Shown piece after piece: positions 45,237-62,776 of a stretch of DNA of 64,000 bases; position 1 is the first letter of the stretch; every line of letters starts with the position of its first letter. The position numbers were made by a program, and so were the translations under genes. The notes beneath the pieces were generated by a model. The model saw nothing but the letters and a program-made list of their open reading frames with translations, was not told where the DNA came from and did not search any database. Source of the stretch: Candidatus Poribacteria bacterium (lineage in GTDB: Bacteria; Poribacteria; WGA-4E; WGA-3G); the NCBI GenBank assembly GCA_958295815.1, contig OY282374.1, positions 2,882,856 through 2,946,855 of the forward strand. Reading direction: 5' to 3'.

Positions 45237-45244
45237 AACAACCG

Positions 45245-45340
45245 GGAATTCGGGGTTACAAACCCCTCCCACAATGTGAAAATTACTTCAAACGCTTTGT
45301 TGAAGCATCTAAAACTTGTTAGTAGCAACTTGGATTAAAA
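45245..45340 (+). repeat. 100-bp composite intergenic element, copy A (REP hairpin GGGGTTACAAACCCC + TCCCACAATGTGAAAATCACTTCAAACGC... + TAGCAACTTGGATTA tail)
   Basis: Shares more than 85% identity with 55794-55890 and 62692-62776. Has internal palindromes GTGAAAATCAC and AAACG...CGTTT. Confidence 0.85.
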
Positions 45341-45405
45341 TTGGCGACATTGGAAAATAGGCTTGCAGGAAACAGCAAGAAATTAAGAAAAAGGACTTCA
45401 TTATT

Positions 45406-46245
45406 ATGTCTGACGTTAAAGAAATACACATCAAAGCAGAAATAGAACCGACCGCAGATAACGATTCTGACGAGTGCGAAGAGAAATCATTTGTTACACG
45501 TATGCGAGAGATTGCAGAGACAGCACTTGACACAGTCAAATCGGAAGTAAAAAAAGGAATAGAAGAGCGCATTGCCCCTGTTGAAGAAACAGCTGCTAAC
45601 CTGACATCGACAGTCAAGGAAGAGGTAGAGTCGATTGTACAACGCGTGCACGATCAATATGAAACCGAACGCGCTGAACTATTTCGCACAGAAATCGAAA
45701 AAGAGGTAGATGCTGCCGTGCAGCACGTCCATGAAGAATATAAGGCGGAACGCGATATCCTATTACGGACAGCTGCCGAAGCCGAAAACACTAAAAAACG
45801 CATGGAGACTGACTATCAACGGAAGCTAAAGTTCGCAAACGAAGAAATTTTAGAAGGAATGGTGCCGGTGCTTGATAGTTTCGAAGCCGCGATTAAAAGT
45901 GTAACTGAGAAAGTTGAAACCGACGACGCTTCATCTGATCTCACCACATTCAGCGAAGGTGTGGAACTTGTTCACAAACAGTTGTTAGATGCCCTGAAAA
46001 GTCACGGACTCACGCCAATTGAAGCTATCGGTGAAACATTTGATCCGTACCGACATGAGGCATTGATGGCAGTGGCATCAGATGACATAGCAGAAGATAA
46101 AGTGGTTGAAGAGTTTCGGCGCGGGTATATGTTGCACACCCGCGTTCTGCGCGCCTCACAAGTAGTTGTTTCGCAGGGAGCTGAAAAAGAAGAGGAAGTG
46201 CCTGAAGATTCAGATGACAGTGCCGATGCTGACGACGCTGAGTAG
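45406..46245 (+). CDS. grpE: Nucleotide exchange factor GrpE (with acidic N-terminal extension of about 100 aa)
   Basis: C-terminal GrpE core ...AENTKKRMETDYQRKLKFANEEIL...LPVLDSFEAA...FDPYRHEA. Confidence 0.85.
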   Translation: MSDVKEIHIKAEIEPTADNDSDECEEKSFVTRMREIAETALDTVKSEVKKGIEERIAPVEETAANLTSTVKEEVESIVQRVHDQYETERAELFRTEIEKEVDAAVQHVHEEYKAERDILLRTAAEAENTKKRMETDYQRKLKFANEEILEGMVPVLDSFEAAIKSVTEKVETDDASSDLTTFSEGVELVHKQLLDALKSHGLTPIEAIGETFDPYRHEALMAVASDDIAEDKVVEEFRRGYMLHTRVLRASQVVVSQGAEKEEEVPEDSDDSADADDAE

Positions 46246-46266
46246 TACAATAGGAAGGGACAGTCC

Positions 46267-47382
46267 ATGATGCAAAAACGCGACTATTATGAGATTCTGG
46301 CTGTGAACCGTGATGCCGATGAAGATGAGATAAAGAAGGCTTATCGCAAACTCGCCATTCAATACCATCCAGATAAAAACCCTGGGAACAAAGAAGCTGA
46401 AAACAAGTTCAAGGAAGCGACAGAGGCTTACGAAGTCCTGCGTACTCCTGAAAAACGACAACTTTATAATAGGTTCGGACATGCAGGATTAGAAAACAGC
46501 GGCAGCGATTTTGGCGGGTTTGGCGTGAATCTCGACGACATTTTCGGAGACGTCTTTGGCGATCTCTTGGGAGGATTCGGTGCTTCCCAACGCACACCGA
46601 AACGCGGGCGGAGTTTACAATACAACCTTGAAGTGACGCTTGAAGAGGTCATCCACGGAAAACGGGCTAAGATTCAGGTGCCCCGGATTGAATCCTGCCC
46701 GACGTGCGAGGGTAGTGGTGCAAAGCACGGGACGCGGGTTGTAACGTGTCCTCAGTGCCATGGTAGAGGTCAAGTCAGCCAAACGCAAGGATTTTTCACA
46801 ATGTCCCGGACCTGCCCGCACTGCCGTGGTGAAGGTGAAATCATTCAAGAACCGTGTTCATCTTGTGCCGGAAAAGGACTCGTCCGGAATACGGCTGAGA
46901 TTGAACTGAATATTGATAAAGGTGTTGACACGGGTTTCAAATACCAATTGCGTGGCGAAGGCGAATCAGGCGCCAACGGTGCGCCTCCAGGTGACCTGTA
47001 TGTTGTCATCAATGTTGTCCCGCATGAACGCTTCCAACGCAACCAAAATGACCTGATTACATCAGCCAAAGTTTCGTTCGTTCAAGCGGCACTCGGTGGA
47101 AGAATTAAAGTCGATGGCATTGATGGACCTGAAGTGTTGGATATCCCGCCCGGCACGCAGTATGGCACGCAGTTACGTATCGCTAACAAAGGTGTTCCGC
47201 ATTACAGACGTTCCTATTCAGGCGATTTAGTCGTCGTTATAGAAGTGGAAACGCCCAAAAACCTGAATGCGACAGAACGCGAAAAGTTAGCGGAATTCGC
47301 AAATTTGCGTGGTGAATCCTATCACAGCGAACAGGGTGGATTTTGGGATAAGTTGCTCGGTCGCAATGATGAGGACGAATAA
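46267..47382 (+). CDS. dnaJ: Molecular chaperone DnaJ
   Basis: J-domain with HPD (YHPDKN). G/F-rich linker. Four CxxCxGxG zinc-finger repeats ([32 protein letters not shown]). Confidence 0.95.
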
Positions 47383-47444
47383 TCCGTATAGATAGAGCGA
47401 TTCAATTTTTAGAGAGAGTGTACAACGGTGTATGAGTGCTCAAC

Positions 47445-48347
47445 ATGGTAAACAATTGGGCGAGAATCACGGTAACTACCTCTCAAGAGGCATCTGAGGC
47501 AGTCGCGAACTGCCTTTTTGAATTGGGCGCGACAGGCGTTGAATTCGAGGATAGCAGTGCGTCTACGGTAAACCTTATTGCCTATTATCCATTAGATGAC
47601 CGGGTTGGTGCGCGAATGCAGAGGCTCCGCGATTTCCTTGCGGAACTTCCGACCTGGGGCATTCAGTCAGAACCTGCCACAATCGACTTAAAACCTGTGA
47701 AATCTGAGGATTGGGAAGAAGCGTGGAAAGCTGCTTTTCCACCGATGCGCGTTGGAAATAGGATTCTGATCACGCCAACGTGGAGCGATACGCCGCACAA
47801 GGAAACGGATGCTGTAATCCAACTGGATCCGGGTATGGCATTCGGCACTGGTCACCATCCTACCACTCGGCTATCCCTCGAATTATTGGAAGACTCGGTT
47901 GAATCACTCTACCACGTCGCTGACATCGGGAGCGGTTCTGGTATTTTAACTGTCGCCGCTGTGAAATTGGGAGCGCAACAGGTTGACGCGATTGAACTGG
48001 ATCCATCGGCTATTCCTGTCGCATCAGCAAATTTTAAAATAAATGGGATCGAATCGCGAGTCCGATTAACTCAAGGTGATGGACTCAAGAGCGTAGAAGG
48101 CAAATACCACCTCATTATCGGAAATATCCTAACGAAGGTGATTCTCCCGATCATTCCATACTGCGCACCACGACTACATCACGCTGGAGCAGTTATCTTT
48201 TCTGGGATACTTGACACAGAACTGGCGCAAGTTGAATCGGTTTTAGAAGCGCACCAGTTTCGATGTATTGAGGTCGTACGTGAAACAGAAGACAATATCA
48301 CTTGGGTAGGAGTTAAGGCGATTCTCCAATCGGCAGCTGCGTTATAG
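47445..48347 (+). CDS. prmA: Ribosomal protein L11 methyltransferase
   Basis: PrmA N-terminal domain plus SAM-binding motif DIGSGSGIL. Confidence 0.85.
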   Translation: MVNNWARITVTTSQEASEAVANCLFELGATGVEFEDSSASTVNLIAYYPLDDRVGARMQRLRDFLAELPTWGIQSEPATIDLKPVKSEDWEEAWKAAFPPMRVGNRILITPTWSDTPHKETDAVIQLDPGMAFGTGHHPTTRLSLELLEDSVESLYHVADIGSGSGILTVAAVKLGAQQVDAIELDPSAIPVASANFKINGIESRVRLTQGDGLKSVEGKYHLIIGNILTKVILPIIPYCAPRLHHAGAVIFSGILDTELAQVESVLEAHQFRCIEVVRETEDNITWVGVKAILQSAAAL

Positions 48348-48362
48348 AGGCTTGTACAACAC

Positions 48363-48623
48363 TTAGCGTGGTTCCTCTTTTGACATTCCGTGGCACAGAG
48401 TGCATCTACCGAGATTCAGATGTGGCATTGTGGGTGATTTTTCATCGCCTATTAAATGGCATTTCAGACATTCAGCGTCTGCCTCTGAACCGCGATGTTC
48501 CTCAATGTTAGAACGCGCAGGCGCAGCGTTGAAAAAAAGAATAACCATAACAATTGCGAAAATTAGACCGATAACGCTGACAATAACCATAAGCGTCTTG
48601 GCACTGGCTTGTTCTGTTGGCAT
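48363..48623 (-). CDS. Small membrane-anchored dihaem c-type cytochrome (candidate)
   Basis: 86 aa. N-terminal TM helix. Two CxxCH motifs (CLKCH, CTLCH). Immediately downstream of the PIG-L gene on the same strand. The RBS spacing is long (14 nt), so it is uncertain. Confidence 0.45.
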   Translation of the reverse strand: MPTEQASAKTLMVIVSVIGLIFAIVMVILFFNAAPARSNIEEHRGSEADAECLKCHLIGDEKSPTMPHLNLGRCTLCHGMSKEEPR

Positions 48624-48641
48624 TGACTAAAATGAGACTCC

Positions 48642-49460
48642 TTATTTGAAAAATGGGAAGAGGATAGGGATATTTTCTGCAGTTAGTGATGAACCGTATT
48701 CGCACCCTTCAAATGCCTCAGCATATTGGATCTGCGTGCCTGATTCTTCGCCATATAGTGCTATTAGCAAGTCGCGATACTTATCGGCTATAGCACGAAA
48801 ACCCTGCAAGCGACGTTCAGCGAGCCATGTCCGTCGTGCTGAATCACGAGTTGGAACACTTTCTAATGTGCCGCCGTTGTAAGGGAGCCACTCATAGAAC
48901 TGTGATACGTGGCAGTGCAGCATATCAATCTTTTGCTCAATCACGGCATCAATACCGACAGCTACATCCGGTGTGAATGGGTACGGCTTCATGAAACCAT
49001 CACTTAAATAGGCAATAACAGGGTTTGTCCGTAAATCCGGCGTAAGTGCACAAATATTCGGGACGGTAACCATATATGCGGCATCCTGTACCAACGTTGA
49101 TGTATACCGGTGATCAGGATGGTAATCGTTAGGACGATGGGTCATAATTAGGTCTGGTTGGAATTCACGAATTGCGCGGATAATCTTGTAACGGTTTTCT
49201 AATGTCGGCATCAGTTCGCCGTCGTGATTGTCCAGCAGTTCGTATTCAATACCGATAACTTCAGCGGCGGCTTGTGCTTCTGCATTCCGTCGCTGTGCTA
49301 AGGGACCACCACCCATTTCGTGGTGTCCAGCATCGCCGTTTGTAACAGAGACAAATTTAACGCGATGCCCCTGTTGTACATACAACGCAGCGACACCTCC
49401 TGCTTTAATATCACAATCATCGGGATGCGCCCCGAAAACAAGAATATTTAATGTTGACAT
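48642..49460 (-). CDS. PIG-L/LmbE-family N-acetylglucosaminyl deacetylase
   Basis: N-terminus ILVFGAHPDDCDIKAGG...TNGDAGHH is the PIG-L zinc-binding signature. Confidence 0.8.
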   Translation of the reverse strand: MSTLNILVFGAHPDDCDIKAGGVAALYVQQGHRVKFVSVTNGDAGHHEMGGGPLAQRRNAEAQAAAEVIGIEYELLDNHDGELMPTLENRYKIIRAIREFQPDLIMTHRPNDYHPDHRYTSTLVQDAAYMVTVPNICALTPDLRTNPVIAYLSDGFMKPYPFTPDVAVGIDAVIEQKIDMLHCHVSQFYEWLPYNGGTLESVPTRDSARRTWLAERRLQGFRAIADKYRDLLIALYGEESGTQIQYAEAFEGCEYGSSLTAENIPILFPFFK

Positions 49461-49564
49461 TTTTCATTATCCTCTAAAAGATTACGTGGGTTCTACCTGT
49501 AACAGATGTATCTTAGAAGTATGACGCTCCCGTTCTGTGGGAAAGGCAATTATTAAACAATACT

Positions 49565-50032
49565 ATGCAAAACTGGAAAGTTGAAGTCTACTATAAACCT
49601 GAAGTCCCCGATACGATCGGGCAAGGCATTGTTGAAGATATAACCGATCTCGGTATTAGTGGCGTCGATTCTGTTCGCACAGCCACGGTTTACTGGATTG
49701 AAGGCACACTTGATGCCGAGGCTATCGACCGAATTGGTATGGAACTTCTTGCTGACCCGATCACACAAGTTTACACTTTCAGGTCTCAAAGCGATTCGAC
49801 GACAGACTGGACGCTTGAAGTACAATTCAAGCCGGGTGTTACCGACGCTGTTGGTGATAGTGCTGTCAAAGGCATCAAAGATTTAGGCATTACAGGTGTC
49901 ACAGGTGTTCGTACTGGACATAAGTATTGGCTAACGGGTAACCTGAATGCTGAGATACTTGAAACGATTGCGAGACGGCTTCTTATGAACGATGTTATCC
50001 AAACGTTTTCTTATGAAGAACCGCAGTCGTAA
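49565..50032 (+). CDS. purS: Tandem-PurS fusion (two PurS-like domains; FGAM synthase PurS component)
   Basis: Two repeats of about 75 aa, KVEVYYKPEVPDTIGQGIVEDITDLGISGVDSVRTATVYWIEG and TLEVQFKPGVTDAVGDSAVKGIKDLGITGVTGVRTGHKYWLTG, match the PurS fold pattern. Confidence 0.65.
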   Translation: MQNWKVEVYYKPEVPDTIGQGIVEDITDLGISGVDSVRTATVYWIEGTLDAEAIDRIGMELLADPITQVYTFRSQSDSTTDWTLEVQFKPGVTDAVGDSAVKGIKDLGITGVTGVRTGHKYWLTGNLNAEILETIARRLLMNDVIQTFSYEEPQS

Positions 50033-50041
50033 TGACTATCT

Positions 50042-50854
50042 CTAACTCGCATAGACCCGAATCACTGTCCCTAAATGAAGTCGGACTAAGGTAGAAGTCG
50101 CCGCTCGCCGAAGTATGAAGCGAAACCCAGCAGCCTGACTAACGCGCCTCGGTTTGCCTAACGTAATGTTCCGAAAACCGTGTTTCTGGAGCAGTTTTGG
50201 TAAAGAGCGCGCAGAGAAATAGTAGAGATGGTCACGCGGATGAACGTAGGGCCAATCTGCTTTCTGGAGACGACTCTGGAGACTTTCCCCGTTCGGCACT
50301 TCAATGACAAGCGTTCCCGTTTGCGGTTTCAGTACCCGGCGTAATTCACTGAGAAGCGGGTTCAATTCCGGTATATGCTCTAATACATGATAGAGTGTAA
50401 TTGCGTCGAAATGTGCGTCGGGAAAATCTGCATCAAATACCTCTCCACACTGTACATCCAATTTATGTATCTCTTGTGCGAACGCACTTCCGCTCTTGGA
50501 AGGTTCAACGCCGTCCGGCTCCCAACCGCGTTCACGAGCGAGGTGGAGGAACGTGCCGATACCGCATCCAACATCCAACAACCGACCTTTATCTTCGCAT
50601 TGCTTTTCCAACTCCGTGAGACGTTCTGTCATCTGCAGCCATTCCATGCTGTCTGTATGGATACGCTCCATCTTATCCGGCGGATAGTAAGTTTCAACGT
50701 AGCCTTCCTCAAGTGTCTGGCGGCTGACGCGCGGGTTCACATATCGTAGATGACACTGTTTGCAGGCAACCACCGACAGCGAGTCTTTATCAAAAAGCAA
50801 CTCTGTCTCATCTCGCTCACAGATAGGGCAGTCAATATGTTCTAAAATATCCAT
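50042..50854 (-). CDS. Class I SAM-dependent methyltransferase with N-terminal zinc ribbon
   Basis: CPIC...CKQC zinc ribbon. SAM motif LLDVGCGIGTF. Confidence 0.75.
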   Translation of the reverse strand: MDILEHIDCPICERDETELLFDKDSLSVVACKQCHLRYVNPRVSRQTLEEGYVETYYPPDKMERIHTDSMEWLQMTERLTELEKQCEDKGRLLDVGCGIGTFLHLARERGWEPDGVEPSKSGSAFAQEIHKLDVQCGEVFDADFPDAHFDAITLYHVLEHIPELNPLLSELRRVLKPQTGTLVIEVPNGESLQSRLQKADWPYVHPRDHLYYFSARSLPKLLQKHGFRNITLGKPRRVSQAAGFRFILRRAATSTLVRLHLGTVIRVYAS

Positions 50855-50868
50855 TGTCCCACGATTGA

Positions 50869-51882: not shown

Positions 51883-51940
51883 TTTCTGGGAAATAGTATA
51901 TCACAATCGAGATGTTGTATGTAGGAAAATCTATGCGGAC

Positions 51941-52073
51941 TTGGTTATTGGTTATAAGTTATTGGTTAAGAAGCGGATAGCGGTGAGGTTATGGGTTGTG
52001 AGTTATGGGGGATGTGGGTTATAAGTTGTCTGAACCAGGATTTACAGGATTCAAGGATTTGCAGGATTATGGA
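51941..52073 (+). repeat. Degenerate short iterons (GGTTATAAGTTAT / GTTATGGG, then CAGGATT x3) in a divergent promoter region
   Basis: Same GTTATAAGTTA motif cluster as 11046-11103. Confidence 0.6.
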
Positions 52074-52324
52074 TGCCCTTGATTAACGACTGGCTTTTAT
52101 AGAATATCAAACTATTTTTTTTGGTTAATGGAAAACTGAATGGCTATGATATCCACGCCTTTCGCTTGTCTTTTACACACATGTATGGTACAATTGCCAT
52201 GATTATATGTAGTGTAGAAAGCAACCGGACCACAGAAAACCACTAATAAAAAACAATCCCTGAACACCCATTCCTTTTCTGAACACACAACCCTATACCG
52301 ACGCTTCTTCTTGACCGAAAATGA

Positions 52325-52375
52325 GATTGATAAACTGGTGTATAAATTGTATAATTTATCACCAGAGGGATACCG
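52325..52375 (+). promoter_or_regulatory. Promoter/operator module copy 3 (TTGATA-17-TATAAT on the plus strand) driving the AT-rich gene 52403-53563
   Basis: GATTGATAAACTGGTGT-ATAAATT...CACCAGAGGGAT aligns with copies 1/2 (ATAAACTGGTGTCTATAAATT...CCAGAGGGAT). Consensus -35/-10 at 52327-52332 and 52350-52355. Confidence 0.6.
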
Positions 52376-52402
52376 CAGTGTAAAAAAGAATAGGAGAATA
52401 TT

Positions 52403-53563
52403 ATGAATGATTTGATTGATAAACTAATACAGGATTTAAAAGAGGATGCTGCAAAAAGTAAAGCTGAAATGGATAAAGCATGCGATCAAATGATGAGAGA
52501 TTTGCATACCAAGAGCCCAGAATTAATGAAAGCGAAATTTGAAGAAATTAAGAATACAGATATTACAATCTGTTTTGATGAGAGTTCTATTGCATCCAAC
52601 AGTTGGGAAAAATTTCATAACCGAGTAGAGGGCCGTATACTCAAGCAGATAGCTTCCAAGATAGAGAAATCTCTTAATGAATCTGTTCAGGACGACGACC
52701 TGCAAAAATACCTTTGGATAGAACGTAAAGACGAAAACAACCAATTGCAAGGAGTTGCCCATTGTCCCAAGCAAGTGATTGACAGGATCCGTCAGGACTG
52801 CAATGATTTCCGAATCCAGACTATAATTGGGATATGGAACAGGTTTAGACAAGTTACAATTGACAGCGCTCGTAATATTGGACAAGTTAACTTACCGGAT
52901 ATTCGTATCACACTAATCTTTCCGACTTCTAACACATTAAATATTTTAAGGTACCGTACAGAGGCTGAAACAACAAAAGAAGAGTATATCTATAGTTTAC
53001 CGTCAATTACCTTGGATACCGACGTGCTCCTCAAGATGAAAAAAGGAAAATCTGTGGATATGCAGGAATTCCGAAAGACATACCTTGTAGATTTAGCAGT
53101 TTCACAACGAATCCGTGAGGATATTAAGCTACGTCCAGATGAAGAGAAGTTTCTCTCGAATTACTACATTAGAACAATTCCTTCTATTATGCGCTGCAGT
53201 TTTGACAGTAAAGCTCAACGATTTCTTCTAAACCCAAAGTTCAATAAACCTGGAAGCACTGAATTTTTAAAATCTGTGGAATCAATTATCAATAATTTTT
53301 TCAAACCCAGAGGAGAAAAACCGCCAGGGTATCTGGACTGGGATCATCTTCACGCCCACTACTTATCAGGGAGAGATATTTTTCTGACAGATGACCAAAA
53401 GATTCTAAAAATTAAGGAGCAGTTAAACGATGAATTAGGTATCGTTTTAATGAATCTTGAGGATTTCGTAAATACCTTTAAAAATAATAACGATCTAATA
53501 AAGTCTTTTGGAAAAGTCAATTCCATAGACGGTGTCAGTGACATTACCTGTGTCCGCGATTAA
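52403..53563 (+). CDS. Hypothetical protein, AT-rich orphan gene (about 30% GC vs about 50% flanks)
   Basis: 386-aa ORF, GGAG RBS. No recognisable domain. Strongly deviant base composition. Confidence 0.6.
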   Translation: MNDLIDKLIQDLKEDAAKSKAEMDKACDQMMRDLHTKSPELMKAKFEEIKNTDITICFDESSIASNSWEKFHNRVEGRILKQIASKIEKSLNESVQDDDLQKYLWIERKDENNQLQGVAHCPKQVIDRIRQDCNDFRIQTIIGIWNRFRQVTIDSARNIGQVNLPDIRITLIFPTSNTLNILRYRTEAETTKEEYIYSLPSITLDTDVLLKMKKGKSVDMQEFRKTYLVDLAVSQRIREDIKLRPDEEKFLSNYYIRTIPSIMRCSFDSKAQRFLLNPKFNKPGSTEFLKSVESIINNFFKPRGEKPPGYLDWDHLHAHYLSGRDIFLTDDQKILKIKEQLNDELGIVLMNLEDFVNTFKNNNDLIKSFGKVNSIDGVSDITCVRD

Positions 53564-53595
53564 GTAAGTTGTGGGAACAGACTGGATAATAGAAA

Positions 53596-53937
53596 TTGGT
53601 AATCAGGGACTTAAGAATTCCGGACAATGCTCGCGTTATTCGGGGCGGTAAAAACCAAGTGAACGACATTCAACGAGGGACTAGCACACATCCAGCTGGA
53701 ATCACTGGTGTGTCGGTAGAAAGTGGCGAAGGTGTTCCGGATGCAGAATTGGCACGAACCATTCCACACAGACAAGTTGGCATCACAACCGTTGCGGAGG
53801 TCCGAAAAGCAGGCGGTGATGTAGTCCGAACTGCTGGACGGAGTCCTTATCATGCAACGTTGACAGGACTTACGCCCGAACAAGTTAGTAAACTGCTTAC
53901 ACCAACAATTCCCAATCCTAGGAGGGAAAGAAGATGA
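53596..53937 (+). CDS. Hypothetical protein (no ATG; TTG/GTG start), possible toxin-like module
   Basis: 113-aa ORF with no internal Met. Its stop overlaps the next ORF's start (ATGA). Confidence 0.35.
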   Translation: MVIRDLRIPDNARVIRGGKNQVNDIQRGTSTHPAGITGVSVESGEGVPDAELARTIPHRQVGITTVAEVRKAGGDVVRTAGRSPYHATLTGLTPEQVSKLLTPTIPNPRRERR

Positions 53938-54269
53938 ACAAACTCAGAGTTTTCGCAGATTTTCACAATGCGGACGCAAAAGGCAGGTTGCGGTTGAACT
54001 GCGCCGGTACGATAGCAGATTGCGAACGTCAGGGAATTGTGCTGCGAGATGGACAATCCCTTATCATCTACAGCGAAGAGTTGGAGGTTGAGGGTGTTGT
54101 TCACTACTCAGAAGAAGAAAAATTGTGGACAGCGGTTATTGATTGGAATGCCATTCGAGAAGTAGAACCTATAGTCCCTCAATCAGCAATTCAGGACATC
54201 AGCCACATGATGGAGAAAAAATGGATAAACGGTAGCTACATTACCGAGATGAAAGTGAATTCTATGTAG
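53934..54269 (+). CDS. Hypothetical protein, translationally coupled to 53596-53937 (possible immunity/antitoxin-like partner)
   Basis: ATGA overlap with the upstream ORF. 111 aa, no known domain. Confidence 0.4.
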   Translation: MNKLRVFADFHNADAKGRLRLNCAGTIADCERQGIVLRDGQSLIIYSEELEVEGVVHYSEEEKLWTAVIDWNAIREVEPIVPQSAIQDISHMMEKKWINGSYITEMKVNSM

Positions 54270-54568
54270 GTTTGAAATAGGCATATTACTCAATTTCGGT
54301 AAAAAATATTAATGACAGATATTCCGATCACATTAGCTGATAACTCCCTTCATTCTTCCAACTCTTTGCTATCCCCATCTCATGTCATAATTTTATACAC
54401 CCAACTACTGTAGATTATAGAATTACTTTGACCTTGTGGACGCTGCCCGGTGCTGTTAGGAAACCGCGCCTACCGAGATGTTGCTACAAAAATCTTGAAA
54501 AAAAGGATAAAATATGAGATAATGTAGGAGGAATCAAAATATCTTGTTCAAAGGAGAAATTACACAAG

Positions 54569-55741
54569 ATGCCATTAGGTAGGAAAATACGTTACGGCAT
54601 GGTGGGTGGTGGACCGGATGCGTTCATCGGTGCTGTCCATCGTAAAGCCGCAGCACTCGACGGGGAAATAGATCTCGTCGCCGGTGCGTTCTCATCATCA
54701 CCCGAAAAATCTCGCCAGCAAGGTGCTGAGCTTTTCCTTGATGCAAATCGGGTATACGGCTCTTATAAGGAAATGGCGGAAAAAGAGAGCCAACTCCCAG
54801 AAGGCGAACGGATTGACTTCGTCTCAATTGTAACACCGAATCATGTCCACTTCGATGTAGCCAAAACCTTTATTGAAGCCGGGTTTCACGTCGTCTGCGA
54901 TAAGCCGATGACGACAACGGTTGCGGATGCAGAAACGCTCTGCAGCCTCGTTAAAGAACACGACGTCGTCTTTGCACTCACACATAATTACACAGGCTAT
55001 CCGATGGTGAAGCAGGCACGCGAACTTATTAAAGACGGAAAACTCGGAACGCTTCGCAAGATCGTCGTAGAATATCCACAGGGTTGGCTCGCCACATTTT
55101 TGGAAGACGAAGGTGCGAAACAAGCCGTCTGGCGTACGGATCCCAAACAAGCCGGTGCCTCTTCGTGTATCGGAGATATCGGTTCCCACGCGGAGAACTT
55201 GGCACACTACATCACAGGACTCGACATCGAAGAGATATGTGCCGACATGACCACATTTGTAGAGGGTCGTCTGTTGGAAGATGATGGCAATCTATTGGTG
55301 CATTACGAAAGCGGTGTCCGCGGCGTGCTTTATGCCTCGCAAATCTCGGTGGGTGAGGAGAACAACCTCCGCATCCGCGTCTACGGTACTGACGCTTCGT
55401 TAGAATGGCAACAGGAGAATCCGAACTATCTCTACGTCCGTTTCCCAGATGGTCCCGAACAGGTTTACAAACGTGGTAACGACTATTTGGCAGAAGTGGT
55501 TCAACACAACTCACGGATACCGTTTGGACATCCCGAAGCGTTTATTGAGGCATTCGCAAATATTTATGTGAACGCTGCACGTACAATGTCGGCGAAAATC
55601 GCTGGCGAAGCTCCAAGCGAATTTGATACAGACTTTCCCACCGTTCAAGACGGTGCACGAGGTGTACATTTCATTAACGCTGCTGTAGAGAGCGGTAAAC
55701 AGCGTGCGTGGCTCGACGCGAGTTACACGCCTCCGGCGTAA
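54569..55741 (+). CDS. Gfo/Idh/MocA-family NAD(P)-dependent oxidoreductase
   Basis: Rossmann N-terminus YGMVGGGPDAFIGAVH plus the C-terminal alpha/beta domain typical of the family. Confidence 0.85.
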   Translation: MPLGRKIRYGMVGGGPDAFIGAVHRKAAALDGEIDLVAGAFSSSPEKSRQQGAELFLDANRVYGSYKEMAEKESQLPEGERIDFVSIVTPNHVHFDVAKTFIEAGFHVVCDKPMTTTVADAETLCSLVKEHDVVFALTHNYTGYPMVKQARELIKDGKLGTLRKIVVEYPQGWLATFLEDEGAKQAVWRTDPKQAGASSCIGDIGSHAENLAHYITGLDIEEICADMTTFVEGRLLEDDGNLLVHYESGVRGVLYASQISVGEENNLRIRVYGTDASLEWQQENPNYLYVRFPDGPEQVYKRGNDYLAEVVQHNSRIPFGHPEAFIEAFANIYVNAARTMSAKIAGEAPSEFDTDFPTVQDGARGVHFINAAVESGKQRAWLDASYTPPA

Positions 55742-55793
55742 TTTTATATTGGGAATTGGCAGTCGGTATGTGATTTTTATATTAGATTAACGG

Positions 55794-55890
55794 AGAATTC
55801 GGGGTTACAAACCCCTCCCACAATGTGAAAATCACTTCAAACGCTTATTGAAACGTTTAAAGCCTGTTAATAGCAACTTGGGTTAGATTA
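55794..55890 (+). repeat. 100-bp composite intergenic element, copy B
   Basis: GAATTCGGGGTTACAAACCCCTCCCACAATGTGAAAATCACTTCAAACGCTTATTGAAACGTTTAAAGCCTGTTAATAGCAACTTGGGTTAGATT. Confidence 0.85.
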
Positions 55891-55936
55891 GACATCCCTT
55901 TACCGATAGCCGATAACGCATAAAAGGAGATATACT

Positions 55937-56935
55937 ATGGCAAGACCTGTAACACTCTTTACAGGCCAATGGGCAGACTTAACATTAGAAGAAATAGCTG
56001 AAAAAGCGAGTGGATGGGGCTATGATGGCTTAGAGCTCGCATGCTGGGGTGACCATTTTGAGGTCGATAAAGCCCTCTCGGACGACAGTTACTGTCAGGG
56101 TAGGCACGATCTACTCGCGAAGTATGGGCTGAAAGTTTGGTCGATTAGCAACCATCTTGTTGGACAAGCCGTCTGTGATAATATCGACAGCCGACATCAA
56201 GGCATTTTGTCAGAAGCGATTTGGGGTGACGGTGATCCGGCTGGCGTTCAAGAACGTGCTGCTGAAGAGATGAAAAACACGGCGCGCGCTGCAGCGAAAC
56301 TCGGCGTGAGCGTTGTCAATGGATTTACTGGTAGTTCTATATGGCATCTGCTCTACTCTTTCCCGCCGAATGATCCTGCGCAAATTGATGCGGGTTTTGA
56401 AGATTTTGCGAACCGTTGGAACCCGATTTTCGATGTCTTTGATGAAGTTGGTGTTAAGTTTGGACTCGAAGTCCATCCGACTGAAATTGCTTTTGACATT
56501 GTCACTGCGGAACGCGCAATTGAGGCAGTCAACGGCAGAGAAGCGTTCGGATTTAACTACGATCCGAGTCACCTCGGTTATCAAGGCGTTGACTACGTTG
56601 CTTTCCTTGAACGGTTGAGTCACCGGATTTACCACGTCCACATGAAAGATGTCTGGTGGGCAGATACACCGAGATTAGCTGGAGTATTCGGTGGACACCT
56701 GAACTTCGGTGATGCTCGGAGAAATTGGGATTTTCGTTCGATTGGACGCGGTAGCATTAATTTTGAAGAGATTATTCGAGCGTTGAATCACATGGAATAT
56801 GACGGTCCACTCTCTATCGAGTGGGAAGACAGTGGTATGGATCGTGAGCACGGCGCTCGTGAGTCTTGCGCTGCTGTTAAAGGCTACGATTTTGAACCGT
56901 CTGCAGTGGCTTTTGATGCAGCATTTGAAGAGTAA
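55937..56935 (+). CDS. Sugar phosphate isomerase/epimerase (xylose-isomerase-like TIM barrel)
   Basis: Conserved TIM-barrel blocks with metal ligands (E...D...H...E pattern). Confidence 0.75.
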
Positions 56936-57017
56936 AAAGCGTAAATATTGTTTCGGCGGGTCTCAGTGCCCGCCGATTGCCGAGTCTTGAGAAATAATAC
57001 CTAACAGGAATAGACCC

Positions 57018-58115
57018 ATGGCAAAAGGCTCTGTTCATCCTTCGGAATCCCGGAATTTTTACGATCGTCGCACGGGTACGCACATCCGACAGGTGACCAG
57101 TGCGTCGGCTCTGCATCATCATCCTTTTTTTATCATACCCGCTTACGATGATGCGATGCAGCGGTTGATTTTTGTCTCGTATCGAACAGGGACACCACAG
57201 ATATTTGCGGAGGAGCGCGCCACGGGTGAACTTCGGCAATTGACGGACAGACCGGATATAAGCGAATGGTCAGTGCATCCTGGACGAAACGGGAAAGCGG
57301 TCTTTTTTACAGCAGGAACAAGTGGCTGGAAACTCGATCTGGAGACGCTTGAGGAACGAGAGCTTGTTGATTTCGCTGTGACGACGCTGCGGGAAGAGGG
57401 TATGGTCGCCGCTGCTATGGGTACGACCTCAGTGAGTCACGATGACCGGTGGTGGGCGGTTAGATTCAGCATCGGTAAGGAGTCTGCGCTCGCTATCGTA
57501 GACACAGAAACCGGTAAACACGATATTATCTTGCACAGGGACAGCATTGGGCATCTTCAATTTTGTCCTGATGACTCCAATTTACTCTACTACGCAGGTC
57601 CGCTTATGGATCGCGTGTGGGTTATCCATCGCGATGGGAGTGGAAATCGCCGTCTTTATGTACAAAACCTTGAAAAAAAGGAATGGATTACTCACGAAAC
57701 ATGGATTCCAGGAACTCGCGAACTCGCTTTTGTCGATTGGCCCCATGGGGTCCGTTGTGTCAACGTTGACACAGGTGTGGAACGACAAATAACAACCGTC
57801 AACGCATGGCATGCGATTAGCAATCGTACGGGAACGTGTGTGGTGGCAGATACGAACTTCCCGGACATCGGCATCCAAATTTTTGACCCACGCGACGGTA
57901 TTGGTGAACCACAGACGTTGTGTTATCCGTATGCTTCATCTATCGGTGAGCATTGGAACGGGCCTTTCCCGTACGCAGCGGGTCCAATCCAAGTTTATGC
58001 CCCTCAGCACACACATCCGCACCCTTCTTTCAGTCCAGACGGACAATATGTTGTATTTACATCAGACCGAAGTGGGTATGCCCAAATCTACGAGGCGACT
58101 ATTGGAACGACATAG
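57018..58115 (+). CDS. Oligogalacturonide lyase (Ogl, PL22-like)
   Basis: N-terminus MAKGSVHPSE...TGTHIRQVT and C-terminus HTHPHPSFSPDGQYVVFTSDRSGYAQIY parallel the E. chrysanthemi Ogl termini (MAKGKQ...TGTEVVRLT; ITHPHPSFTPND...LFTSD...IYIA). Confidence 0.7.
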   Translation: MAKGSVHPSESRNFYDRRTGTHIRQVTSASALHHHPFFIIPAYDDAMQRLIFVSYRTGTPQIFAEERATGELRQLTDRPDISEWSVHPGRNGKAVFFTAGTSGWKLDLETLEERELVDFAVTTLREEGMVAAAMGTTSVSHDDRWWAVRFSIGKESALAIVDTETGKHDIILHRDSIGHLQFCPDDSNLLYYAGPLMDRVWVIHRDGSGNRRLYVQNLEKKEWITHETWIPGTRELAFVDWPHGVRCVNVDTGVERQITTVNAWHAISNRTGTCVVADTNFPDIGIQIFDPRDGIGEPQTLCYPYASSIGEHWNGPFPYAAGPIQVYAPQHTHPHPSFSPDGQYVVFTSDRSGYAQIYEATIGTT

Positions 58116-58259
58116 AGATAAACAAAAGTAGGACAGTGCTTTTAATGTTCTACACTGCTGAGAAAAACACACAAGAAATTCATAGACAACACCTGCGAGA
58201 ATGTAAAGCAAAGACACATTATGCCATAATTGACATGATTTTCATAAAAGGAGAAAAAA

Positions 58260-59654
58260 ATGCCAGTTGTCATTCCCCGCCTGATTGTTGAAGTGTTCCA
58301 ACATACAAACTTCCGTGGCAGAATGGGGTATGTTGTAGAACCTGTTCAGTTTACAAGGGACATCGGATTTCAAGACAATATATCTTCCGTTCGTGTTTAT
58401 AAGGGTCCAAACTTTTCGTCGAACCCGAACTATAAGGTTATTTTTTTCCAACATCGCAATTTCCGTGGTCAAAAATTAGCACTCGGTCCGGGATTTTATC
58501 CGAATTTGCACGACGTCGCTTACAATTTCGCCGATAGAATTTCATCGATTAATTTCGGTTCCACATTAGAAGTTGTTGGACCAGAATGGGGCACGGTTCC
58601 AATGATTGTAGACTGCTATGAGCATGTCAACTTTCGTGGTAGAAAAATCACGATTCTACGCGATATTGCTAATCTGCGGGATGCGCAAGGCGGAACTTGG
58701 TTTGAAGATCGTATTTCGTCGATTCGCATTTTTAAAGGACCAGATTTTCCGCCAGAGGGTGCAGAAGTTGTGTTCTATGAACACCCTGACTTTGAAGGGG
58801 CACCGCTGGCGATTCGCATGGAGCCGATGGATTATAAGAAAGAGTTGCCTAATCTTCATCTACTACCTCAGAACTTTGGGGACTCCATCTCCGCTGTGAA
58901 GATTGAGGGTTGGGCATCCTCTGGAGAATTCACAGAGATGGTTTTTGAAGATGAGTTTATTGGCAACCGGATGCGTCCAGAATGGCGATGGGACGACCCG
59001 AAAGGCGGTGGCTCATGGGCAGAACGCCAAGGTTACTTGGAAATGCGAACTGAACCTGGGCAAGACCTCTGGCACGGTGCAGACGGTAGCGGTGGTGATA
59101 TGAGTGCGCCGCGCCTGATCATGGAAGTGAGAGGAGACTTTGCTGTCGAAACCCGCATGCGAATCTCGTCACAACTGAGAGAACACGGCGGTATACTGAT
59201 ATGGAAGAACCCGAACAGGTTTCTCCGTCTGGAGAAGACCTCTGGACCACACGCCTTCAGAGGCGATGTCCGATTTGAACGTCACGTTAACCGCGTTTTC
59301 CATCTACAGGGACGGAGCAGTGGACTTAGGGATGTGCGAGAACTCTTCTTACGCGTAGAACGTAGAGGCAACCAGTTTTCCGCTTTCGCCAGTGGTGACG
59401 GTATTCAGTGGAAAAGTTGCGGACAAACCAATGTGGGTATGGGAAATTCGGTCAATGTTGGGGTCCACTCACTGTGTCCGGGCAATATTCCACCAACACT
59501 AACACGTTTCGACTTTTTCCGAGTGTTCAAACGGAGGAGTGAAGTTGCTGAATATCGTCCTATGGGTGTTGGACGGCGCGGTCAAATTTCCGATGAAGAG
59601 CGCGAGCGTCGGATCGCTAATCGTCGAGAACGCGCGGGGCGCGACCTGTTCTAA
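58260..59654 (+). CDS. Beta/gamma-crystallin-repeat (x4) protein fused to a concanavalin-A-like (DUF1349-like) lectin/glucanase domain
   Basis: Four Greek-key repeats with the Y/F-x-H-x-N-F-x-G ... ISS[I/V] signature (VFQHTNFRGR..ISSVRV; FFQHRNFRGQ..ISSINF; CYEHVNFRGRK..ISSIRI; FYEHPDFEGAP..ISAVKI). C-terminal half GYLEMRTEPGQDLWHG...LIWKNPNRFLRLEK. Confidence 0.6.
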   Translation: MPVVIPRLIVEVFQHTNFRGRMGYVVEPVQFTRDIGFQDNISSVRVYKGPNFSSNPNYKVIFFQHRNFRGQKLALGPGFYPNLHDVAYNFADRISSINFGSTLEVVGPEWGTVPMIVDCYEHVNFRGRKITILRDIANLRDAQGGTWFEDRISSIRIFKGPDFPPEGAEVVFYEHPDFEGAPLAIRMEPMDYKKELPNLHLLPQNFGDSISAVKIEGWASSGEFTEMVFEDEFIGNRMRPEWRWDDPKGGGSWAERQGYLEMRTEPGQDLWHGADGSGGDMSAPRLIMEVRGDFAVETRMRISSQLREHGGILIWKNPNRFLRLEKTSGPHAFRGDVRFERHVNRVFHLQGRSSGLRDVRELFLRVERRGNQFSAFASGDGIQWKSCGQTNVGMGNSVNVGVHSLCPGNIPPTLTRFDFFRVFKRRSEVAEYRPMGVGRRGQISDEERERRIANRRERAGRDLF

Positions 59655-59778
59655 ACACACCCATTCTTTTGGGTTCCGATCTGAAACCCATTTATCCCGC
59701 GTGCTCATGAATCGAAACATTTAAGGTGAGGTGCTCGTGCCTCACATCACACTATTTTCCAGATCCAAGGAGGACATC

Positions 59779-60654
59779 ATGTTTGAAAAAGATAGCGTCT
59801 ATCGCCAGAAAGCATGTTTTATCAACAAGCAACGATTTTTCACAATAACCTTCCTCCTTCTCGCATTCTTGATATGGAATGCGCAGCCTGCCGATGCGAT
59901 CATCGGTGCGGTTGAAGATGGCTTAGTTGCCTACTGGACCTTTGACAAGGATACAGTAAAAATTAAAACGGAGGCGGTAGATCTGCTATCAGGATTAGCA
60001 GCTGCCGTCCATGGAGATCCTGAACTTGCCCCCGCTTCCGATTGCAAGGTTGGCGAGTGTGTTCTCTTCGATGGCAGTGTTGATCGGCTTCTTGTTGAGG
60101 ATTCAACACCACCGACAATCGATCGAGATTGGGAAGAGATTACCCTTGAGTGCTGGGTGTTTATCAATGCCTTAGACGATAGTTGGAACCGAATTATTTC
60201 ACTTGATGACATGCCTGCGAACACTGCAGTGGCAAGTCTGTACTACGATGACGATGATAACCAAAACGGCTTTTTTGTCCGTGCTGGCGGACAATCCACA
60301 CAAGCAGCACAGGATAATGTGCTGGAGGACATTGCACTCGAAGAGTGGTTACATCTCGTTGGGACCTATGATGGCTCAACGGTTCACTACTATGTGAATG
60401 GGAAATTAGAGAAAAAGTACGCCATGAAGGGTGGCAAACTTCCGAAGGGCGGGCTGCTTCTCGGCATCGGCGACCGGTCAGATGGCTGCGATTGCGATAC
60501 AATCCAGGGATATATTGATGAATTCCGTATCTATGACCGGGTCCTGAACTTAGCAGAAGTGGAAAATAACATGAATGCCACTGGGCTTGATGTTAGTCCT
60601 TCTGAAGATCATCTGAGTGTTACATGGGGACATATAAAGGCGCGACGGCGATAA
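59779..60654 (+). CDS. Secreted LamG/concanavalin-A-like lectin domain protein
   Basis: Signal peptide. LamG_3-like block WLHLVGTYDGSTVHYYVNGKL...GYIDEFRIYDRVL. Confidence 0.6.
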   Translation: MFEKDSVYRQKACFINKQRFFTITFLLLAFLIWNAQPADAIIGAVEDGLVAYWTFDKDTVKIKTEAVDLLSGLAAAVHGDPELAPASDCKVGECVLFDGSVDRLLVEDSTPPTIDRDWEEITLECWVFINALDDSWNRIISLDDMPANTAVASLYYDDDDNQNGFFVRAGGQSTQAAQDNVLEDIALEEWLHLVGTYDGSTVHYYVNGKLEKKYAMKGGKLPKGGLLLGIGDRSDGCDCDTIQGYIDEFRIYDRVLNLAEVENNMNATGLDVSPSEDHLSVTWGHIKARRR

Positions 60655-60708
60655 AAAAGCAATTCCACAATTGCGTTTGAAAACGTCGGTGTGGACGGAG
60701 ATAAATTT

Positions 60709-61716
60709 ATGGAAACGATTGGAGTTGGCGTTATCGGTTGTGGTGGCATGGGGAGAAGCCTCGCTACCAGTGCGCACGCTGTTGAAGGGATAGAGGTCGT
60801 CTGCGTTAGCGATGTGCAAGAAGCATTGTCAGAAAAACTTGCTGCAGACCTTGATGCATCTTATACATTGGATTACCATGAACTACTCGCCGATGACCAG
60901 ATTCGTGCTGTGCTGATAGCGTCACCACCGTTTATGCACTCGCCGATGGCGGTCGATGCTGCCAACGCAGGCAAACACGTCTTTTCTGAGAAACCGATGG
61001 CACCGACATTGGATGCTTGCGATGCGATGATTGCAGCTGCGGAAGAAAACGGCGTCAAACTCACAATCGGTTTGGTGTGCCGCTATCACGCGACGCACTC
61101 GAAAGTTCGTGAGATTGTGCAGAGCGGTGAACTCGGAGCACCTGCCTGTATGATGGTGCATCGTATTGGTGGACCGTGGCGTAGCGGATATAGTCACACC
61201 CCGTGGCGACTGGAACGTGCGAAATCTGGTGGGAGTCTCATGGAAATTAATGCCCACGAAATCGACTTTATGCGCTGGACATGCGGAGATGTAGCCTCTG
61301 TCTATGCTGCTGGTGGGCAGTATGGACCAGATAAGAGCGACTACCCAGATGTCGTGCTCGCCTCGTTGCAGTTTGAGAACGGTGCAGTCGGTTTGCTCCA
61401 TTCCAGCCATGTTTCCGCAGTTGGTGGATATGGTGGACGCGTTGATTGCGAAGGTGGATCGATTTATTTTCCGCAGATTTGGGGTGGCGATGCGACTATC
61501 CAGATTAAACCTTTTGAAGGCGAAGGACGGCAGATTAAAATAGCAGACATTACGGTGCCACCACCGGTTCAGGAGGAGATTCGCGTTTTCGCTGATGCGA
61601 TTCGTAATGATACATCTCCACCTATTACAGGATTAGACGGCCGCGCCGCAGCCGAAATCGCATTGGCAGCCTACCAATCCGCTGAGACCGGACAATCCGT
61701 TCCATTACCATTATAG
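60709..61716 (+). CDS. Gfo/Idh/MocA-family oxidoreductase
   Basis: IGVGVIGCGGMG Rossmann motif. EKP motif (FSEKPMA). Confidence 0.85.
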   Translation: METIGVGVIGCGGMGRSLATSAHAVEGIEVVCVSDVQEALSEKLAADLDASYTLDYHELLADDQIRAVLIASPPFMHSPMAVDAANAGKHVFSEKPMAPTLDACDAMIAAAEENGVKLTIGLVCRYHATHSKVREIVQSGELGAPACMMVHRIGGPWRSGYSHTPWRLERAKSGGSLMEINAHEIDFMRWTCGDVASVYAAGGQYGPDKSDYPDVVLASLQFENGAVGLLHSSHVSAVGGYGGRVDCEGGSIYFPQIWGGDATIQIKPFEGEGRQIKIADITVPPPVQEEIRVFADAIRNDTSPPITGLDGRAAAEIALAAYQSAETGQSVPLPL

Positions 61717-61734
61717 TTGTTAGAAGGAGGAAAG

Positions 61735-62673
61735 ATGAAAATATCAGTCTGGGATGGTGGACTTTCAGATAGCTATCTCAAACAGGTGACACAATTGGGT
61801 GCGGACTGCATTGACTTTGGAGGTGGGAATGCTTTTCCCGGTGTCGAAGAACAGGGCTACCCCGACTTGGATGAAGTGCTGAAAATCAAGAAACGGATAC
61901 GCTCCTGGGGTCTCGACATCAATCGCGTAACACTTCCGAATATCACAGAGAAATTCATGCAGGGGCAGCCCGGTGGCGAAATTGAACTGGAAAACACGTG
62001 TAATGCTCTGAAGGTCTTTGCTGAAGCGGGTGTGCCTATTGCCCGCCAGAGATTCTGGGGAGATACGTTTGATTATCTCATGACTCGCTACTCCTCGGTT
62101 CATAGAGGTGGTTATACCTCTCGTGGGGAAAGCCGTGCTGCGACCCAGGACCCGTCACCCACCCCGACGATGGAAGCACTCGACGAATGGTGGAAACGGT
62201 TCAGTGAAATCTATGGTGCACTTGTTCCTATCGCCGACGAGTACGAGATCAAACTTGCTATCCATCCATCAGATGTACCGAACCCAGACACACCACTGGG
62301 TGGTCTCGGCTTTCACCGTGTGATTGACGCCTTTCCGAGCAGAAATGTTGGCTACCTTTACTGTTGTGGCACCCGTGCTGAAGCAGGGGGCAGTGCTATC
62401 GTCCTTGACGAACTCAACAACTACGGACGCAAAGGACGTATTTTCATGGTTCACCTAAGGAACGTGCGCGGCAGTCTCGCAACAGCCGAGGCATTTGAGG
62501 AAGTTCTCCTTGATGACGGTGACATGAACGTTTTCAAAATCATCCGAGAGCTACAAAAGGTCGGGTTCGATGGATGTATCAATGCCGATCACATTCCGAG
62601 ATTGGAAGGTGATGTTGGCTTAGCCTATTCCGTCGGCTACATCAAGGCACTTTTCGCGGCATTAGTGGCGTAA
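61735..62673 (+). CDS. uxuA: Mannonate dehydratase (UxuA-like)
   Basis: GGAGG RBS. Blocks parallel E. coli UxuA (WDGG vs RWYGP; AIHPSDVPNPDTP vs AVHPDDPPRP; HLRNVRG vs HLRSTMRE; INADHIP vs MRPDHGH). Confidence 0.7.
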   Translation: MKISVWDGGLSDSYLKQVTQLGADCIDFGGGNAFPGVEEQGYPDLDEVLKIKKRIRSWGLDINRVTLPNITEKFMQGQPGGEIELENTCNALKVFAEAGVPIARQRFWGDTFDYLMTRYSSVHRGGYTSRGESRAATQDPSPTPTMEALDEWWKRFSEIYGALVPIADEYEIKLAIHPSDVPNPDTPLGGLGFHRVIDAFPSRNVGYLYCCGTRAEAGGSAIVLDELNNYGRKGRIFMVHLRNVRGSLATAEAFEEVLLDDGDMNVFKIIRELQKVGFDGCINADHIPRLEGDVGLAYSVGYIKALFAALVA

Positions 62674-62691
62674 CTTCACCCCAAGTTACCA

Positions 62692-62776
62692 CGGAATTCG
62701 GGGTTACAAACCCCTCCCACAATGTCATAATCACTTCAAATGCTTTGTTAAACGTTAGTAGCAACTTGAGTTAACT
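62692..62776 (+). repeat. 100-bp composite intergenic element, copy C (internal about 12-bp deletion)
   Basis: GGAATTCGGGGTTACAAACCCCTCCCACAATGTCATAATCACTTCAAATGCTTTGTTAAACGTTAGTAGCAACTTGAGTTA. Confidence 0.85.

Follow-up and report, generated by a model that had tools for sequence, protein, structure and literature searches.

Known repeats of related kinds

Bacterial MITEs (transposable elements of miniature size that carry inverted repeats), among them Correia/NEMIS of Neisseria, RUP of Streptococcus pneumoniae and MITEAba12, are short (~100 bp), non-coding, intergenic and multi-copy, with terminal inverted repeats, a short target duplication, presence/absence polymorphism and insertions in operons near gene ends. 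The Correia element duplicates TA and has long inverted repeats. A second group, the repetitive extragenic palindromes (REPs) headed by GT(A/G)G (Nunvar et al. 2010, PMC2817692; SMAG of Stenotrophomonas), is extragenic, occurs both solo and in tandem and shows compensatory stem variants, and REPs have been reported not to show MITE signatures (PMC3184786). For REPINs, which are REP-containing composites of ~70-110 bp, it has been proposed that they are the unit in which REPs truly replicate (Bertels and Rainey 2011, PMC3116915). Here we describe a repeat of ~96 nt found in a stretch of 64,000 nucleotides of Candidatus Poribacteria DNA (assembly GCA_958295815.1, contig OY282374.1; hereafter the window), which is probably, at odds of roughly 60%, a non-autonomous mobile element of the MITE type with an embedded REP, belonging to one species-level Candidatus Poribacteria lineage.

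The element shares with MITEs the features listed above, except that terminal inverted repeats are seen in its full-length copy, two of its three copies lacking most of one of them. It also differs in that it does not fold into a long hairpin and carries a canonical REP inside, and whereas Correia and RUP duplicate TA it duplicates ~5 bp at TAA/TTA sites, no parent insertion sequence (IS) being known for it. With the GT(A/G)G-head REPs it has in common the layout, the extragenic position, the solo and tandem occurrence and the compensatory stem variants. Unlike them, its REP travels within a unit with a target duplication and inverted termini, the REPs of the window are all direct rather than inverted doublets or alternating arrays, and the host is one of the Poribacteria, not the Proteobacteria. 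As REPs are reported to be without MITE signatures, a REP inside a unit with a clear footprint is a mildly unusual combination.

REPINs and the bacterial interspersed mosaic elements (BIMEs) are likewise composite repeats containing REPs, but a REPIN is two inverted REPs in one long hairpin and BIMEs alternate, whereas the element has a single REP with no inverted partner; target duplications of the kind seen here are not described for REPINs. Miniature elements derived from IS200/IS605 resemble it in having a subterminal hairpin, here on the minus strand ~11 nt from one end, in their strand-biased orientation and, in two copies, in an imperfect hairpin ~21 nt from the other end. They differ in leaving no duplication and having a fixed target motif, while the pentamers at the three sites differ (AAAAY, AGATT, AACTT), and the element's two hairpins are unrelated in sequence. 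An earlier description made from the letters of the window alone (the sequence-only reading) had likened the element to Correia or ERIC types, a likeness which did not hold, there being neither the TA duplication and long inverted repeats of the former nor the long palindrome of the latter. It belongs neither with the REPINs and BIMEs nor with the ERIC-type long palindromes, the Correia elements or the miniature elements derived from IS200/IS605. Its MITE part and its REP part are each of a kind already known; it is the lineage-restricted family that is new. A full-text literature search found no paper dealing with REP-type repeats in Poribacteria.

Insertion footprints and empty sites

The proteins of the window place it in Candidatus Poribacteria, to which the DnaJ homologues of named source belong; a cyanobacterial origin, guessed at from the style of the repeats, was rejected on these grounds. 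Comparison by synteny with related Candidatus Poribacteria contigs (labelled L085-L095) showed that the copies are insertions with target-site duplications of ~5 bp. At two of the three sites the element is missing from the syntenic relatives and the duplicated pentamer is single there. At the site of copy 1, relatives whose DnaJ is 86-87% identical keep the order pcrB-grpE-dnaJ with a spacer of 48-69 nt, compared with 169 nt in the window, which reads CACGGCT-AAAAC-(AACCGGGAATTC...CAACTTGGATT)-AAAAT-TGGC; AAAAY is single in L085, L086 and L087 and double around copy 1. At the site of copy 3, only 6-18 nt separate the two genes in three relatives, whose FemAB-like proteins are 90-91% identical, and the empty sites there read GGCGT-AACCT-TAATG, GGCGT-AACTT-TATG or GGCGT-AATCT-GAATG. 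The window has GGCGT-AACTT-(CACCCCAAGTTACCACGGAATTC...CAACTTGAGTT)-AACTT-TAATG, with AACTT/AACCT single in L092, L093 and L094 and double around copy 3. Insertion postdates the divergence of this lineage from relatives whose proteins are 86-91% identical. A 2.1-kb contig from the same species (L091, from sample SAMEA13322680, 97-98% nucleotide identity) carries the same element at the same site as copy 3, so the element is inherited once inserted.

No clean empty site was found for copy 2 in L088, L090, L092 or L095, where the middle of the spacer holds other REPs or heptamer repeats and could not be aligned. The exact flanking repeat at this copy is 8 nt long (TTAGATTA, 55782-55789 and 55883-55890; chance ~0.002). 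A duplication of 8 bp as a general rule was considered and rejected, since the empty sites of copies 1 and 3 give 5 bp in a common frame, and AGTTACC/AGTTAAC was likewise rejected as the duplication of copy 3, since the empty sites place AAGTTACC inside the insert, where it is part of the inverted repeat on the left. When all copies are read in one frame, the flanking 5-bp repeats match at 4/5, 5/5 and 5/5 positions for copies 1, 2 and 3, with a joint chance of ~3e-8 before allowing for the choice of frame. The ends of the element (AAC...GTT, then A) resemble its A/T-rich targets, so they could shift by 1-2 nt. The targets contain TAA or TTA, and two of them overlap the TAA with which the upstream gene ends. 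The description of the element as MITE-like in the sequence-only reading is thus borne out by clean insertions with 5-bp duplications relative to syntenic relatives and by inverted repeats in one copy, and the target-site duplications whose presence it had left to be checked do flank the copies (AAAAY, AGATT and AACTT for copies 1, 2 and 3).

Copies, boundaries and anatomy

There are three full and two partial copies (Table 1). The full ones had been described as more than 85% identical; an alignment put them at ~90% over ~95 nt, with unrelated flanks. Their placement downstream of one plus-strand gene and upstream of the next also stood, all three lying between co-oriented genes. The ends first assigned were not correct: the real ones, given by the empty sites, place the start of copy 3 15 nt further left. 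A profile built from the three full copies and run on the window with nhmmer returned these copies at E values of 1.5e-34, 4.9e-33 and 2e-27; beyond them it found a two-part match at 4033-4135 (4e-10 and 2e-8, profile positions 3-56), matches to the REP only and a weak tail match at 16651-16669, with nothing comparable elsewhere. The 24-mer GGGGTTACAAACCCCTCCCACAAT had 9 matches with up to 3 mismatches where shuffling predicted 0, and the 15-mer of the tail had 4 against 0.18 expected. Chance as the source of the copies is excluded. No open reading frame (ORF) lies inside the 96-97-nt copies, which therefore have no coding capacity.

On the plus strand the order of parts is a left terminus, GGRGAATTC, one REP unit, ~45 nt of unique sequence and a right terminus. 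The left terminus, (C)AACCCAAGTTGCCAC, is full length in copy 3 and shortened to YAAC(C) in copies 1 and 2, which begin CAACC followed by GGGAATTC and TAAC followed by GGAGAATTC, respectively; the outer 4-5 nt of the left repeat have been kept and the next ~11 nt are missing. The right terminus, GTAGCAACTTGRRTT, is an inverted copy of the left, and the motif of the termini can be written TAACCCAAGTTGCTAC. In copy 3 the right end, GTAGCAACTTGAGTT(A), has the segment CACCCCAAGTTACCAC as its reverse complement, and the left end of its orthologue in L091 reads CAACCCAAGTTGCCAC. The two inverted repeats match at 13/16 positions in L091 and at 11/16 in copy 3; a 13/16 match was seen in 1 of 20,000 control pairs taken from the window (chance ~5e-5), and the left end of L091 also matches the right end of copy 2 at 13/15 positions. 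A pair of terminal inverted repeats is thus present in copy 3 and its L091 orthologue, with copies 1 and 2 having only YAAC(C) at the left. As the left ends of copy 3 and L091 are inverted with respect to the right end, the conserved tail, TAGCAACTTGGRTTA, is the element's right inverted repeat and not a structured RNA; the structured tail of the sequence-only reading is an inverted-repeat terminus, with no conserved helix beyond the REP stem.

Conservation is uneven along the element. Pairwise mismatches number 0 in the 32-nt REP part and 8/54, 6/43 and 7/42 elsewhere (~15% divergence), and variable columns among the three copies are 0/32 in the REP and 8/42 in the rest (Fisher p = 0.0085). 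An internal stretch of 12 nt is shared by copies 1 and 2 and deleted in copy 3 and L091, which defines two sub-lineages of the element. Of the further palindromes that had been listed, GTGAAAATCAC is intact only in copy 2, and AAACG-N9-CGTTT, which copy 2 has, is weaker in copy 1 and has been lost by deletion from copy 3.

A degenerate copy had been placed at 4041-4136. A partial copy is indeed there, at 4033-4135, but it is rearranged, with an internal second REP and a duplicated TCCCACAAT segment, and it has no tail; it sits between minus-strand genes at 2796-4001 and 4138-7809. A tail-only copy assigned to 16649-16663 is exact, on the plus strand, but 3 nt off. This remnant abuts a separate repeat at 16676-16735, and a more decayed right-end remnant lies near 14765-14785, ahead of that repeat's other copy. 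The suggestion of a mosaic of modules held in part, there being a REP module inside the element and a right-end remnant beside a repeat (16626-16735).

The separate repeat, of 60-80 nt and 87% identical between 14788-14847 and 16676-16735, lies upstream of two minus-strand genes (14016-14747, no Pfam match, and 15347-16492, HSDR_N-like) and carries on the minus strand TAGACA-N17-TATACT, a putative strong sigma-70-like promoter. Since both copies abut a right-end remnant, the promoter module was seemingly duplicated along with the remnant.

A search of ~115 kb of DNA from related Poribacteria did not find the family, nor did searches of viral contigs and plasmids. The pattern CACAATNTNNNAATNACTTCAAA, from the middle part of the element, had 17 matches among species-representative genomes and 67 in a metagenome collection, all of them chance matches without hairpin or tail.

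Table 1. Positions in the window of the element copies, of their parts, flanks and empty sites, and of the REP loci and families
Feature	Position	Length	Strand	Sequence or context
Copy 1	45240-45336	97 nt	+	between pcrB (GGGPS-family, 44490-45236) and grpE (45406-46245)
Copy 1, REP hairpin and head	45252-45274			
Copy 1, right terminus	45322-45336			GTAGCAACTTGGATT
Copy 1, left flank	45235-45239			AAAAC; overlaps pcrB stop TAA 45234-45236
Copy 1, right flank	45337-45341			AAAAT
Copy 1, empty sites				GGCTAAAAT then AGGC (L086, L087); GATTAAAAC then AGAC (L085)
Copy 1, empty sites in context				CACGGCTAAAAT then AGGC (L086, L087); CACGATTAAAAC then AGAC (L085)
Copy 2	55789-55884	96 nt	+	between Gfo/Idh/MocA gene (54569-55741) and xylose-isomerase-like TIM-barrel gene (55937-56935)
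Copy 2, REP	55801-55824			
Copy 2, right terminus	55870-55884			ATAGCAACTTGGGTT
Copy 2, left flank	55784-55788			AGATT
Copy 2, right flank	55885-55889			AGATT
Copy 3	62677-62772	96 nt	+	between UxuA-like gene (61717-62673) and GNAT/FemAB-like gene (start near 62782-62788)
Copy 3, left inverted repeat	62677-62692			CACCCCAAGTTACCAC
Copy 3, REP	62700-62723			
Copy 3, right inverted repeat	62758-62772			GTAGCAACTTGAGTT
Copy 3, left flank	62672-62676			AACTT; overlaps stop TAA 62671-62673
Copy 3, right flank	62773-62777			AACTT
Copy 3, empty sites				GGCGTAACCTTAATG (L092, L093); GGCGTAACTTTATG (L094); GGCGTAATCTGAATG (L095)
Rearranged partial copy	4033-4135		+	REP and middle part as far as CACTTCAAACG; right terminus missing
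Right-end remnant	16626-16666	~40 nt	+	exact terminus TAGCAACTTGGATTA at 16652-16666
REP loci	1262/1322, 4043/4083, 11108, 23024, 25416, 27746-27923, 30861/30918, 36342, 42015-42269, 45252, 55801, 62700		+	
REP family GGGCTT/AAGCCC	27738-27945			four tandem copies
REP family GGGAAT.../...TTCCC				in the window
REP family GGCACAC/GTGTGCC	42011-42316			seven copies

REP units of the window and their strand bias

The REP unit of the element, denoted GGGGTTACAAACCCC, reads GGGGTT-ACA-AACCCC-TCCCACAA on the plus strand and TGTGGGAG-GGGTT-TGT-AACCC-CGAAT on the minus strand, that is a GTGG head, GA and then the palindrome GGGGTT-TGT-AACCCC. A GT(A/G)G head followed by a palindrome is the layout tabulated for REPs associated with RAYTs (REP-associated tyrosine transposases), e.g. 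GTGGGAGGGGGCTTGCCCCCGAT of Pseudomonas fluorescens (PMC2817692), and judged by this layout the 5' hairpin is a canonical REP. Outside the element, REP units are found solo and in tandem clusters; with those of the element they make up 12 intergenic loci in the 64 kb and three to four stem families, with compensatory stem variants between families (GGGGTT/AACCCC versus GGGCTT/AAGCCC). The relatives carry different REPs of their own.

All five full or partial copies of the element are on the plus strand, as are the eight other loci of REP-like units (a hairpin with C(C/T)AC after it), although the genes switch from the minus to the plus strand at ~25 kb; four pattern matches on the minus strand all fall in long ORFs and have no family resemblance. 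The two-sided probability of this bias is ~0.06 for the five copies, which is only suggestive, and ~0.008 for the eight other loci. This points to a REP bias that follows the strand of the chromosome and so, possibly, its replication.

Three further observations concern REPs in this lineage and its relatives. The lpxD-ubiA spacer (41701-42304) holds, immediately before the start codon of ubiA, a cluster of ~300 bp made up of seven ACGGCACACGGAGTGTGCCTACTAC REPs in direct orientation; as this cluster is missing from both L085 (5842-6119) and L087 (5906-6161), a recent local expansion of REPs has taken place. At the site orthologous to that of copy 2, relatives have one or two copies of the REP ACGTAGCGCGAGGGCCTGTCCCTCGCAGGCATC, with a GTAG head on the gene strand (L088 9910-10000; L090 9951-10000 and 16920-16950), so this spacer has been colonised independently by different REP families. 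Finally, L090 has a perfect GTAG-headed palindrome, GTAGGCGCGGTTTCAAACCGCGCCTAC (18830-18860), ~80 nt upstream of a TnpB (OrfB_IS605) gene at 18938-20392, which hints that REP-like hairpins in Poribacteria are linked to IS200/IS605-type elements.

How the element may have moved

A MITE-type element would owe its mobilisation, in trans, to a transposase whose gene lies elsewhere in the genome of 5.1 Mb. An enzyme of the DDE type (named for its aspartate and glutamate residues) is the default guess on account of the inverted termini and the fixed short duplication. The REP may have been captured by, or inserted into, a master copy, and its invariance could be due to the maintenance of REPs genome-wide, either by a Y1 (single-tyrosine)/RAYT-type system of their own or through host use as RNA-stabilising or protein-binding hairpins. 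Several observations weigh against such an origin. Copies 1 and 2 have convincing target duplications yet only 4-5 of the 16 nt of the left repeat, which is not an easy fit, a transposase purely dependent on terminal inverted repeats accommodating them poorly. The same-way orientation suggests a strand-specific mechanism over DDE transposition. Nor did the window show an autonomous element sharing these termini, and with n=3 full copies the number of copies, the consensus of the termini and the length of the duplication (4-8 bp, varying with the placement of the ends) are provisional.

A rather unlikely alternative is that the element is a REP subfamily with long flanks, spread on single-stranded DNA by a Y1/HUH, RAYT or IS200/IS605-like transposase, with the REP hairpin as the recognition element at one end and the inverted-repeat terminus either incidental or a second recognition site. 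This would suit the invariance of the REP part and its GT(A/G)G head, which defines RAYT-linked REPs (PMC2817692). In copies 1 and 2 the REP hairpin, read on the minus strand, lies 11-12 nt from the element end, as at the right end of IS200/IS605, and a GTAG-headed palindrome precedes a TnpB gene in a related contig. All 12 REP loci are on one strand whatever the orientation of the genes, which replication-coupled single-strand transposition would give. Single-strand Y1/RAYT-type transposition is expected to produce a strand bias but leaves no target duplication, elements of the IS200/IS605 type inserting beside a fixed tetra- or pentanucleotide (PMC2817692), whereas the flanks here differ between copies and are single in the empty sites. 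In addition, the second hairpin differs from the REP in being rich in A/T and has been deleted from copy 3, and no RAYT or Y1 gene, nor any other transposase or a reverse transcriptase, was present among the window ORFs scanned against Pfam (most long ORFs).

Distinctly less probable is a combination of the two, in which a strand-specific, REP-recognising (Y1/RAYT-like) system uses the REP hairpin and GTAGCAACTTGRRTT as termini and still leaves a 5-bp duplication. Mobilisation from a REP end would explain how two copies moved without the left repeat, why the REP is invariant and why the copies are oriented the same way.

A non-mobile origin, by segmental duplication, gene conversion or microhomology-templated repair between spacers, with the flanking repeats as junction microhomologies, is very unlikely. 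Junction microhomology is conceivable given that the termini (AAC...GTT/TTA) resemble the A/T-rich targets, REP clusters do expand locally (the 300-bp cluster at 42.0-42.3 kb is missing in relatives), and the right-end remnant was seemingly copied along with a neighbouring repeat. Three dispersed copies with the same sharp boundaries, direct duplications of the same length in all three, with the duplicated sequence single in the empty sites, and an inverted-repeat pair in one copy are nevertheless the signature of transposition and not of templated patching.

Tests for RNA and regulatory functions

The sequence-only reading had also proposed a small-RNA (sRNA) family and a terminator-like hairpin. 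Neither was supported. Rfam gave no match to the element at the gathering score, with only noise at E values up to 10. RNAalifold on the three copies, a test of low power, found 0 compensatory pairs on the plus strand and 1 on the minus strand, so the covariation envisaged for the family did not appear, and no conserved helix beyond the REP stem. Single-sequence folds on the plus strand were not unusually stable (z = -0.7 to -1.6) and included no long hairpin; the second, imperfect A/T-rich hairpin is best on the minus strand, with z = -3.1 in copy 2, and is weaker in copy 1 and deleted in copy 3. No run of U follows the REP hairpin on the gene strand, where it is followed by TCCCACAAT, and a terminator scan found none on the plus strand inside the copies. 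All three copies contain the promoter-like arrangement GTTACA-N17-(G/C)A(A/T)AAT, preceded by TG, but it scores only 8-9 of 12, and a promoter scan flagged copy 3 only.

Operators were considered as well. A CIRCE/heat-shock operator came to mind from the grpE-dnaJ genes downstream of copy 1 and a groEL in the window, and NtcA- or LexA-like operators and a Bacteroidetes-type promoter were also tried; all were rejected, the motifs not being conserved and the relatives lacking the element. Any effect on the neighbours, through a longer operon spacer or a 6-bp G+C-rich hairpin located 15-26 nt past the stop codon, would be incidental and is unproven.

A functional cis-element or sRNA (derived from a 3' untranslated region, or acting as an mRNA-stabilising or attenuating module or a portable promoter) kept for the regulation of flanking genes is slightly less likely still than templated repair. 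In its favour, every full copy sits between two genes of the same direction and has its hairpin 15-60 nt past a stop codon, all have the promoter-like motif, and REPs are known to influence how stable upstream transcripts are (PMC3184786). Relatives that have these operons nevertheless do without the element, which the genes concerned therefore do not need; the neighbours are unrelated in function, no Rfam match, covariation, conserved helix outside the REP or U-tract is present, the non-REP part drifts by ~15% and tolerates a 12-nt deletion, and the remnants at 4033 and 16626 are antisense to their neighbouring genes.

Other features of the window

The region 52000-54300 has a G+C fraction of 0.427 compared with ~0.47, and contains three ORFs (386, 113 and 111 aa) without a Pfam match, with heptamer-like repeats at its border (51944-52032); at the syntenic position L085 has a different island (Uma2, PLD/SNF2 helicase, MmeI-like methyltransferase). 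Two adjacent GNAT (Acetyltransf_3) genes at 32798-33349 and 33369-33953 are tandem paralogues, 76% identical over 300 nt. A minus-strand gene at 23206-25071 has a period of ~315-336 nt (cadherin/Ig-like domains) and a type IX secretion C-terminal sorting domain, and adjoins a PorV-like gene (21657-22781). Programmed +1 frameshifting is usual in prfB, and an RF-2-like ORF at 29959-30732 (region 29609-30732), which from its first residue matches only the C-terminal half of PCRF, fits such a frameshift with the N-terminal part upstream in the other frame.

Implications

The element adds a small mobile repeat family with exact insertion footprints to an uncultivated, sponge-associated phylum. REPs with a GT(A/G)G head are abundant in this lineage and have been recently active, the clusters and the element both being missing from relatives that are 86-91% identical in protein sequence. 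Such elements break assemblies and shift operon spacing, and can mark strains in metagenomes. Were the REP-recognising system with a 5-bp duplication to prove correct, no REP-type repeat before this one would have had its insertion footprint documented, and it would lie outside the Proteobacteria. The coexistence of a transposon-like footprint with a REP-like strand bias poses a small, testable puzzle on the movement of REP-containing repeats.

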